Sequence record: NC_054903.1
DNA length: 64,000 nucleotides
Direction: 5' to 3' (one strand)
Source: Enterobacteria phage GiZh
Position 1 is the stretch's first letter. Every line of letters starts with the position of its first letter. The notes beneath the pieces were generated by a model. The model was not told the origin of the DNA, ran no database searches, and worked only from the letters and a program-made list of their open reading frames with translations. Shown piece by piece: positions 16,831-17,661 of the stretch. The translations under genes were made by a program, and so were the position numbers.

Positions 16831-16906
16831 TGGTCGAGGCAGTAGGGATCGAACCTACGACCTAGGACTTAGAAGGTCCTTGCTCTTCCTTCTGAGCTAT
16901 GCCTCG
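16831..16906 (-). tRNA. tRNA-Arg (anticodon UCU)
   Basis: Hand-folded cloverleaf: acceptor CGAGGCA/TGCCTCG, loop CTTCTAA, T-arm GTAGGTTCGATCCCTAC, encoded CCA. Confidence 0.75.
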
Positions 16907-16910
16907 GATT

Positions 16911-16985
16911 TGGCGGACGTGATAGGATTCGAACCTATAACCAATCGCTTAACAGGCGATCGCTCTGCCATTGAGCTACACATCC
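16911..16985 (-). tRNA. tRNA-Asn (anticodon GUU)
   Basis: Acceptor GGATGTG/CACGTCC (one G-U), anticodon loop CTGTTAA, T-loop TTCGAAT, CCA. Confidence 0.7.
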
Positions 16986-16989
16986 AAAT

Positions 16990-17076
16990 TGGTGGGGAGT
17001 GATGGAGTCGAACCACCCGAGTCGCAATGACAATGGATTTACAGTCCACACCGCTACCTCTACGGGATAACTCCCC
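16990..17076 (-). tRNA. tRNA-Tyr (anticodon GUA), long variable arm
   Basis: Acceptor GGGGAGT/ACTCCCC, anticodon loop CTGTAAA, 87 nt, CCA. Confidence 0.7.
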
Positions 17077-17088
17077 TAATTCATAATT

Positions 17089-17163
17089 TGGTGGCCCTGG
17101 GTGGAATTGAACCACCATCTGGCGATTATGAGTCGCTTGCTTGAACCTTCCAGCTACAGGGCC
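17089..17163 (-). tRNA. tRNA with CAU anticodon (Ile2-like)
   Basis: Acceptor GGCCCTG/CAGGGCC; anticodon arm GCGACTCATAATCGC resembles tRNA-Ile(LAU); CCA. Confidence 0.7.
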
Positions 17164-17164
17164 T

Positions 17165-17240
17165 TGGTGCTGATTGACGGAATCGAACCGCCGACCTTCT
17201 CATTACAAGTGAGTTGCTCTACCTACTGAGCTAAATCAGC
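17165..17240 (-). tRNA. tRNA-Thr (anticodon UGU)
   Basis: Acceptor GCTGATT/AATCAGC, anticodon loop CTTGTAA, T-loop TTCGATT, CCA. Confidence 0.75.
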
Positions 17241-17245
17241 AAAAC

Positions 17246-17335
17246 TGGCGGAGGCGATAGGATTTGAACCTATGAGTCGCCGGAGCGACTGCCGGTTTTC
17301 AAGACCGGTGCATTAAACCACTCTGCCACGCCTCC
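17246..17335 (-). tRNA. tRNA-Ser (anticodon UGA), long variable arm
   Basis: Acceptor GGAGGCG/CGCCTCC, anticodon stem-loop CCGGT-CTTGAAA-ACCGG, 90 nt, CCA. Confidence 0.75.
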
Positions 17336-17337
17336 AG

Positions 17338-17411
17338 TCTCCATACAAGGATTTGAACCTTGGACCTCCTGATCCCAAATCAGGCGCTCTACCAAACTGA
17401 GCTACACGGAG
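17338..17411 (-). tRNA. tRNA-Pro (anticodon UGG)
   Basis: Anticodon stem-loop CCTGA-TTTGGGA-TCAGG, T-arm CAAGGTTCAAATCCTTG; CCA not encoded. Confidence 0.7.
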
Positions 17412-17421
17412 TAAATTAAAT

Positions 17422-17495
17422 TGGAGCGGATAATGAGAATCGAACTCACATCATCAGATTGGAAGTCTGAGGTAATGCCATTATACGATATCCGC
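17422..17495 (-). tRNA. tRNA-Gly (anticodon UCC)
   Basis: Acceptor GCGGATA/TATCCGC, anticodon stem-loop TCAGA-CTTCCAA-TCTGA, CCA. Confidence 0.75.
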
Positions 17496-17500
17496 AAATT

Positions 17501-17587
17501 TGGTGCGAGAAGTGGGACTCGAACCCACAAGGAAATCATTCCGCAGCATTTTAAGTGCTGTACCTTTACCAATTTGACCATTCTCGC
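17501..17587 (-). tRNA. tRNA-Leu (anticodon UAA), long variable arm
   Basis: Acceptor GCGAGAA/TTCTCGC, anticodon stem-loop CAGCA-CTTAAAA-TGCTG, 87 nt, CCA. Confidence 0.75.
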
Positions 17588-17588
17588 G

Positions 17589-17661
17589 CTGGGAATAAAG
17601 GACTCGAACCTTTGCATCCTGGAATCAAAATCCAGTGCCTTACCAACTTGGCTAATTCCCA
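17589..17661 (-). tRNA. tRNA-Gln (anticodon UUG)
   Basis: Acceptor TGGGAAT/ATTCCCA, anticodon stem-loop CTGGA-TTTTGAT-TCCAG; 1 nt from tRNA-Leu. Confidence 0.7.

Follow-up and report, generated by a model that had tools for sequence, protein, structure and literature searches.

A ten-tRNA cluster in Enterobacteria phage GiZh as a member of the known segB-free T-even tRNA operon, with tRNA-Tyr and tRNA-Asn as probable old residents

Introduction

Enterobacteria phage GiZh (sequence record NC_054903.1) carries ten transfer RNA (tRNA) genes in one cluster, located on the minus strand (16831-17661) of a 64,000-nucleotide stretch of DNA which is referred to here, at its full length, as the window. 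This locus is very probably the ordinary tRNA operon of Tequatrovirus in its full form, free of the homing endonuclease gene segB, in which the genes of tRNA-Tyr and tRNA-Asn are old residents that segB has replaced in phage T4, and in which the tRNAs combine a role in translational supply with one in buffering against host nucleases. An earlier note, made from the sequence alone, had described the cluster and regarded tRNA-Tyr and tRNA-Asn as additions to the tRNA set of T4. The comparisons described below bear out the anatomy given there and point to the opposite direction of change.

Ten genuine tRNA genes

On the whole window, ARAGORN predicts ten tRNA genes, all on the minus strand between 16831 and 17661, and no others. 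In the direction of transcription they are Gln(UUG), Leu(UAA), Gly(UCC), Pro(UGG), Ser(UGA), Thr(UGU), a tRNA with the anticodon CAU, Tyr(GUA), Asn(GUU) and Arg(UCU), and their number, strand, order, coordinates and anticodons agree with those of the earlier note. Nine of the ten match the Rfam family RF00005 with 57-74 bits (E 1e-10 to 3e-15), the gathering score being 29 bits. The remaining one, tRNA-Tyr, is matched in Rfam only by tRNA-Sec, within the tRNA clan, at 34 bits, which stays below the respective gathering score of 47 bits because of the long variable arm of this tRNA. Its support comes from other sides, namely the ARAGORN call, the identity at 87 of 87 positions to the annotated tRNA-Tyr of phage RB3, and the detection of T6 tRNA-Tyr, which is 98% identical, by northern blot (PMC13096335). 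The 7-nt anticodon loop and the conserved T-arm of a bacterial-type tRNA are present, as judged for tRNA-Tyr by ARAGORN. All ten tRNA genes are confirmed as genuine, and the prediction software upholds the Tyr and Asn folds, whose rejection the earlier note had named as a reason to abandon its claim. The 3' CCA is encoded by eight of the ten genes; those of tRNA-Gln and tRNA-Pro lack it and would need CCA addition by the host.

The two genes of main concern are those of tRNA-Tyr (16990-17076, minus strand), with a long variable arm, A73 and an encoded CCA, and of tRNA-Asn (16911-16985, minus strand; Rfam 74.1 bits), with G73 and likewise an encoded CCA. The former is absent from T4 and the latter from both T4 and T6. 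tRNA-Tyr is 99% identical to its counterpart in T2, 98% in T6 (2 of 87 positions differ) and 65% to E. coli tyrU, for which the comparison sequence was taken by chromosome coordinates. tRNA-Asn is identical to those of both T2 and RB3 at 75 of 75 positions, and its T-arm core, GGTTCGAATCC, lies at 16925-16935.

A published T-even locus

Of the 1061 phage records matched by a 1.7-kb query that spans the cluster and its surroundings, 489 show an identity of 95-99%, and by such alignments the source phage is a Tequatrovirus (T4-like). The tRNA clusters of phages RB1 and RB3 were deposited as EMBL AJ884577 and AJ884578 with the SegB paper of Brok-Volchanskaya et al. 2008 (PMC2330249). The RB3 record AJ884578 agrees with the window in all ten tRNAs and in their order, continues with the stable RNA genes rnaD and rnaC, and has no segB. 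Its identity to positions 16482-17701 of the window is 97.8% over 1220 bp, with 24 substitutions and one gap, most of which fall in rnaD and tRNA-Thr, while the genes of Gln, Gly, Pro, Ser, the CAU tRNA, Tyr and Asn are identical at every base. Gene order, whole-cluster identity, absence of segB and the SegB target in tRNA-Asn all correspond to the segB-free configuration of RB1 and RB3, the assignment of the target being based on the 75/75 identity of tRNA-Asn to T2 and RB3, where the site was mapped. Shigella phage sb3 is annotated with the same ten tRNAs, and in Escherichia phage JLBYU24 the stretch from Arg to Thr is 100% identical to the window.

T4 (NC_000866, 70.9-72.5 kb) has its operon at the same genome position (e.8 ... 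rnaC, rnaD, tRNAs, trna.2/.3/.4, ip genes) and shares Leu, Gly, Pro, Ser and Thr at 96-100% and rnaC at 99% identity with the window. As the earlier note had stated, its set consists of eight tRNAs (Gln, Leu, Gly, Pro, Ser, Thr, Ile, Arg) and includes neither Tyr nor Asn; between its Ile and Arg genes lies a 666-bp segB, exactly at the slot that Tyr and Asn occupy in the window. T4 differs further in its Ile (65% identity) and Arg (70%) genes, in Ile and Ser genes that do not encode CCA, and in the anticodon arm of its Gln tRNA. T2 (MH751506), with nine annotated tRNAs, carries CAU-Tyr-Asn-Arg at 99-100% identity to the window, but its tRNA-Thr is interrupted after the first ~15 nt by a 133-aa open reading frame (ORF), trna.1, whereas the Thr gene of the window is intact. 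T6 (MH550421), with seven annotated tRNAs of which ARAGORN predicts six, runs Gln, Leu, Gly, a Pro/Thr hybrid, CAU, Tyr, segB and Arg; in contrast to the window it lacks Pro, Ser and Asn and possesses segB, its Tyr gene being 98% identical. JS98, a Dhakavirus, has only three tRNAs, CAU-Asn-Arg, and FriedrichMiescher (Bas39, MZ501066) and many close relatives have eleven, with a His(GUG) gene between Asn and Arg (MZ501066 982-1057 in FriedrichMiescher).

On these alignments the cluster is a near-identical member of a published and widely annotated locus, with the same anatomy as the RB1/RB3 form. The novelty implied by the earlier note does not hold: T2 already has Tyr and Asn, and the RB3 cluster with the same ten genes was published in 2008. 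Of the three T-even phages it had chosen for comparison, T4 is as it described, and the apt comparison is with T2 and RB3 instead of T4 alone. The value of the locus as a discovery is small, as precisely this form entered the databases with the SegB paper of 2008 and annotations of it now exist for hundreds of genomes.

Some of these relatives show rearrangements of their own. In T2, a second ORF, similar to RB51ORF141, lies between Arg and rnaD (the two T2 ORFs are at MH751506 7718-8119 and 7010-7360); trna.1 and the RB51ORF141-like ORF are possibly further mobile genes, and no homologues of either were found in the window. The gene annotated as tRNA-Thr in the GenBank record of T6 (MH550421 6648-6722) has the look of a Pro/Thr hybrid, with the 5' acceptor strand from Pro and the 3' strand from Thr, and is not called by ARAGORN. 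It appears to stem from a deletion bounded by the TAGCTCAGT repeats of the Pro and Thr D-arms, by which Pro and Ser were also lost.

Probable replacement of tRNA-Tyr and tRNA-Asn by segB

As far as can be judged from the sequences, Tyr and Asn are probably ancestral to the locus and were lost by T4. The gene segB, which codes for a GIY-YIG homing endonuclease, would have homed into the locus in the T4 lineage and replaced Asn (as in T6) or Tyr and Asn together (as in T4), bringing with it divergent alleles of the flanking Ile and Arg genes. The preferred 27-bp site of SegB lies wholly inside tRNA-Asn of T2L, RB1 and RB3 (PMC2330249). In crosses of T4 with T2L, homing of segB is nearly 100% efficient and leads to the replacement of ~1250 bp in which Met, Tyr, Asn and Arg are located, and the authors of that study conclude that segB was acquired recently by T4 (PMC2330249).

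The distribution of divergence along the operon is of particular importance here. On either side of segB, T4 and T6 have CAU/Ile and Arg genes with identities of just 65-67% and 70%, respectively, to those of the window, whereas five of the other six genes common to T4 and the window stand at 96-100% and Gln at 89%. Divergent alleles next to segB, set against conserved remaining genes, form the pattern expected of a co-converted cassette. The T4 junction lies at the extreme 3' end of tRNA-Ile, whose CCA is gone in T4 and kept in T6. With Tyr kept beside segB, T6 represents an intermediate form, and JS98, a member of another genus, keeps Asn beside Arg. The replacement was clean, in that the alignment reveals no remnants of Tyr or Asn around segB in T4 and T6; conversely, a tblastn search of the window with T4 SegB detects no SegB homologue or other seg gene at E<=10. 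The core motif of SegB, GGTTCRANTCC, occurs in the T-arms of eight window tRNAs, with GGTTCGAATCC as the copy in tRNA-Asn, and in rnaC, and tRNA-Asn of the window is predicted to contain the preferred homing site.

The reverse course, in which Tyr and Asn were inserted between the Ile and Arg genes of an ancestral eight-tRNA cluster like that of T4, within the lineage of this phage, is the one that the earlier note had in mind. The position it gave relative to T4 is correct, and the direction is most likely wrong, given loss via segB as the more probable event; we regard insertion as highly improbable. It can appeal to the reference phage T4, which has neither gene, and to the plain mobility of the tRNA-Tyr family, whose members are found at 85-96% identity in unrelated phages (T5, V5-like phages and Cronobacter CR3 among them) and at 94% on replicons resembling phage-plasmids. 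Yet what fills the slot in T4 is a mobile gene for a homing endonuclease that prefers the Asn gene itself as its target (PMC2330249), Tyr is kept next to segB in T6, CAU-Asn-Arg occurs in another genus, the divergent Ile and Arg alleles are precisely the segB-linked ones, and Tyr-Asn is the majority form in the database. Concerning the last point, the contiguous Tyr-Asn pair is found in 394 phage records (186-bp Tyr and Asn query, at least 80% covered) and full-length segB in 126, so that the segB-free form is about three times commoner, but these counts reflect database sampling and not phylogeny or independent lineages.

Codon and amino-acid demand

For an estimate of translational demand, 77 ORFs of the window (19.0k codons), mechanically chosen, were compared with 42 annotated genes of E. 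coli K-12 (14.7k codons), which is a modest sample. The codons of the eight classical tRNAs are over-used in the window relative to E. coli by factors of 8.1 for AGA (rank 1 of 61), 5.8 for ATA (2), 3.8 for TCA (3), 3.6 for both ACA (4) and GGA (5), 3.1 for TTA (7), 1.9 for CCA (14) and 1.6 for CAA (24). The eight tRNAs would thereby serve codons ending in A, whose frequency here exceeds that in E. coli by a factor of 1.6 to 8. AAT (3.0-fold, rank 8) and TAT (2.4-fold, rank 11) are close behind; ACT, TCT and CCT, from boxes already read by the Thr, Ser and Pro tRNAs, rank among AAT, TAT and the classical codons.

At the level of amino acids, Tyr is the most over-used of all (4.34% vs 2.60% in E. 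coli, 1.67-fold), followed by Lys (1.57-fold) and Asn (5.58% vs 3.77%, 1.48-fold). The additional Tyr and Asn tRNAs would serve the most over-used amino acids of an AT-rich genome, and for each of the two the host possesses just one isoacceptor. The explanation by translational demand suits Tyr and Asn well, and this function, which the earlier note had suggested, gains support from their place in the top three. The lowest ratio in the window belongs to His (0.56-fold), and demand therefore does not explain the His(GUG) tRNA of the eleven-tRNA relatives.

Host nucleases that cleave tRNAs

The second function concerns defence systems that act by cutting tRNAs. Septu (PtuAB) cuts the variable arm of E. 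coli tRNA-Tyr, and T2 is resistant to it, T6 intermediate and T4, which lacks tRNA-Tyr, sensitive (PMC13096335). Deletion of the T6 tRNA region increases sensitivity to Septu, and infection is restored by over-expression or by SegB-driven tandem amplification of T6 tRNA-Tyr (PMC13096335, 2026). By analogy, tRNA-Tyr of the window would buffer against tRNA-cutting host nucleases such as Septu through its dosage. The counter-nuclease function proposed in the earlier note is supported in so far as a near-identical T-even tRNA-Tyr counters a tRNA-cleaving defence (PMC13096335). Retron-Eco7 is countered by the tRNA-Tyr of T5 (PMC11555353), which resists cleavage by means of a differing variable loop, whereas T-even tRNA-Tyr acts by dosage. 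The phage described here differs from T6 in having no segB that could amplify its Tyr gene, and from T5 in having no tRNA-Lys, the main target of AriB.

AriB, the nuclease of PARIS, cleaves Lys(UUU) and Thr(UGU) of E. coli, and to a lesser extent Asn(GUU), at U36-A-A-U39-C40|N41; substitution of U39 in tRNA-Lys abolishes cleavage, and distal determinants also count (PMC12409363). Both Asn and Thr of the window carry substitutions in this motif relative to the host tRNAs, as a feature of the sequence: the motif is UAAGC|G in Asn (host UAAUC|C) and UAAUG|A in Thr (UAAUC|A in E. coli thrU). A role of Asn and Thr against PARIS/AriB is suggestive only. Evasion through mutated anticodon loops, a route that has been reported for certain other phage tRNAs, was considered for Tyr and Asn and rejected, as their loops, CUGUAAA and CUGUUAA, are identical to those of the host.

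Homologues of tRNA-Tyr are also found outside phage genomes. No blastn match of the phage tRNA-Tyr was obtained in E. coli chromosomes, and a 94%-identical tRNA-Tyr is located on plasmids of ~70-110 kb in 269 E. coli genomes. One of these plasmids, NZ_CP024264, carries at 3921-4471 a cluster of Asn(GUU)-Tyr(GUA)-Thr(UGU)-Ser(UGA), the first three of which belong to the reported targets of PtuAB or AriB. U39 is replaced in its Asn (UAACC|A) and Thr (UAAGC|A). A DNA ligase and an integrase are also encoded near these tRNAs, and NZ_CP024264 may be a phage-plasmid.

Weighing supply, defence and neutrality

Three further explanations of why Tyr and Asn are kept differ in the weight given to defence. 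According to the first, both are retained purely for translational demand and take no meaningful part against defence systems, which we consider rather unlikely. It is favored by the position of Tyr, Lys and Asn as the three most over-used amino acids, by AAT and TAT following just behind the codons of the classical eight, and by host-identical anticodon loops together with a Septu site left in place in the variable arm of Tyr. It does not account for the Septu sensitivity of T2, T6 and T4, which tracks tRNA-Tyr, nor for the effects of the T6 deletion and of extra tRNA-Tyr (PMC13096335), for the addition of His(GUG) in the eleven-tRNA relatives despite low His usage, or for an independent replicon that carries just Asn, Tyr, Thr and Ser. 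At the other end, Tyr and Asn, with His in the eleven-tRNA relatives, could form a defence-buffer module that is toggled by SegB homing, in which Asn (U39 to G) and Thr (C40 to G) would be resistant to AriB and Tyr would titrate Septu and retron-Eco7; this proposal is tentative, and on balance doubtful. Colicin E5, for its part, cuts the four tRNAs of the queuosine family, including Tyr, Asn and His. That Tyr and Asn are neutral passengers, or mere landing pads for homing endonucleases without use as tRNAs, is scarcely probable at all. The T4 tRNA region is indeed dispensable in laboratory hosts (PMC2330249), T4 and T6 manage without Asn, and the SegB core motif is found in the T-arm of nearly every tRNA of the cluster. 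But the cloverleaves of Tyr and Asn are intact, with the expected identity elements (A73 and the long variable arm in Tyr, G73 and GUU in Asn) and encoded CCA in both; RB3, T2 and the window agree at 99-100% in the two genes, compared with a difference of ~8-12% in rnaD of the same operon; and both expression and a phenotype are documented for T6 tRNA-Tyr (PMC13096335).

The reading preferred here, an old segB-free operon with roles in both supply and buffering, also has points that weigh against it. T6 tRNA-Tyr is itself cut by Septu (PMC13096335) and window tRNA-Tyr retains the GUC|A site in its variable arm, therefore any protection would be a matter of dosage and not of a resistant variant. 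The changes of Asn at 39-41 match ordinary drift of the stem. T4, which has no Asn tRNA, is rescued from AriB by T5 tRNA-Lys alone (PMC12409363), and Asn may therefore not be limiting under AriB. The modest codon sample and the dependence of the record counts on database sampling belong here as well, as does the search for a promoter directly upstream of Gln, which yielded none, as sigma-70-like matches near the cluster numbered 7, with 6.5 expected in shuffled sequence.

The other tRNA genes

tRNA-Gln(UUG) (17588-17661, minus strand; ARAGORN and Rfam, 67.4 bits; no encoded CCA) is identical to that of RB3 at 73 of 73 positions and 89% identical to those of T4, T2 and T6. All eight positions at which it differs from the T4/T2/T6 allele are in the anticodon arm and include compensatory changes of the stem, the stem-loop being CTGGA-TTTTGAT-TCCAG in the window and TAGCA-CTTTGAC-TGCTA in the other allele, with U/U instead of C/C at loop positions 32/38. 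That this arm is a rare allele was considered and rejected, since it is the majority form, present in 318 records (identity of at least 95%), while the T4 type accounts for 152. tRNA-Leu(UAA) (17501-17587, minus strand; ARAGORN and Rfam, 56.9 bits), of class II and with encoded CCA, is 99% identical to those of T4, T2 and T6. tRNA-Gly(UCC) (17422-17495, minus strand; ARAGORN and Rfam, 63.3 bits; CCA encoded) is 99% identical to that of T4, and tRNA-Pro(UGG) (17337-17411, minus strand; ARAGORN and Rfam, 66.8 bits; no encoded CCA) is 100% identical to those of T4 and T2.

tRNA-Ser(UGA) (17246-17335, minus strand; ARAGORN and Rfam, 62.6 bits), likewise of class II, has its CCA encoded in the window, in T2 and in RB3 (…CCTCCGCCA), but not in T4 (…CCTCCG-TAA). 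In T4, Ile likewise lacks the CCA, which T6 keeps, and the dependence of some T4 tRNAs on CCA addition by the host is therefore specific to that lineage. tRNA-Thr(UGU) (17165-17240, minus strand; ARAGORN and Rfam, 72.9 bits) is 96% identical to that of T4, 84% to E. coli thrU and identical to that of RB3 at 72 of 76 positions. At the top of its anticodon stem, pair 27-43 is a non-Watson-Crick A-A (C-G in T4, A-U in E. coli thrU), and the same pair is a non-Watson-Crick A-C in the CAU tRNA (G-U in E. coli ileX, G-A in T4 Ile). tRNA-Arg(UCU) (16831-16906, minus strand; ARAGORN and Rfam, 68.1 bits) is the T2/RB3 allele, with just 70% identity to the segB-linked allele of T4 and T6.

The CAU tRNA (17089-17163, minus strand; ARAGORN and Rfam, 59.9 bits) was called Ile2-like in the earlier note, an assignment that agrees with its E. 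coli matches. It has matches in 5424 of 5426 E. coli genomes, and all best matches among those listed are annotated as tRNA-Ile. The 15-nt anticodon arm GCGACTCATAATCGC and the acceptor G1-G2-C3-C4-C5 are common to this tRNA and E. coli ileX, a tRNA-Ile(CAU), at an overall identity of 76%. It represents the T2/RB3 allele, being identical to that of RB3 at 75 of 75 positions, with just 65% identity to tRNA-Ile of T4. By its body, which resembles tRNA-Ile2 and not tRNA-Met, it can be assigned to the Ile2 type, and it is presumably modified to lysidine at C34 and reads AUA. The tRNA-Ile of T4 reads AUA.

Stable RNAs, terminator and flanking reading frames

On the downstream side, tRNA-Arg is adjoined by a homologue of rnaD, the "species 2" stable RNA of T4 (16710-16826, minus strand; blastn 88% over 118 nt), which the RB3 record annotates in the same place. 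It is followed by a homologue of rnaC, the "species 1" stable RNA (16565-16703, minus strand; 99.3% over 139 nt to T4 rnaC), which contains a perfect tRNA-like T-arm, CCGGGTTCGAATCCCGG, with its core at 16587. rnaC is almost invariant across T4, T6, RB3 and the window. An Rfam search of the 330 nt downstream of Arg returned no family matching rnaD or rnaC, and both were therefore identified through homology to the T4 genes. A terminator-like hairpin (16491-16514, minus strand), with a 10-bp stem of which seven pairs are GC, followed by TTTTT, is conserved in T4 and T6 and is likely the end of the tRNA and stable-RNA transcription unit.

Upstream, the cluster is adjoined by an ORF homologous to T4 trna.2 (17759-18052, minus strand; T4 alignment; phrog_2023, E 1e-47), followed by one homologous to trna.3 (18049-18468, minus strand; T4 synteny; phrog_1411, E 3e-55), and a trna.4 homologue is likewise present on this side. 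Between the operon terminator and e.8, a stretch of ~520 bp harbors an ORF of 157 aa (15967-16440, minus strand; phrog_2280); this stretch is missing from the RB3 record and present in phage sb3. A Pfam search of the flanking ORFs (the trna.2 and trna.3 homologues and the 157-aa ORF) gave no match. Taken by its gene content, the locus is a canonical T-even transcription unit of tRNAs and stable RNAs. The T4 operon is transcribed as a single precursor, which host RNase P and 3' exonucleases mature, with CCA being added where it is not encoded. As in T4, the tRNAs of the window would be cut from one precursor by host RNase P and 3' processing enzymes.

Implications

Two predictions about host range follow by analogy with the T-even phages. 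The phage may share the Septu resistance of T2, because it carries the tRNA-Tyr gene as T2 does, and it may share the PARIS sensitivity of T4, because it lacks tRNA-Lys as does T4, which T5 tRNA-Lys rescues. Should the proposal of a defence-buffer module be true, a selfish nuclease would be set against anti-defence capacity across the T-even population, and the Asn-Tyr-Thr-Ser cluster on E. coli replicons resembling phage-plasmids would be a convergent case. In a mixed infection with T4 or T6, the phage would be the recipient and would lose its CAU-Tyr-Asn-Arg block, since the preferred SegB homing site is present in its tRNA-Asn. For the T-even phages as a whole, the comparison corrects a view centered on T4, in that the eight tRNAs of T4 are probably a reduced set and not the ancestral one.

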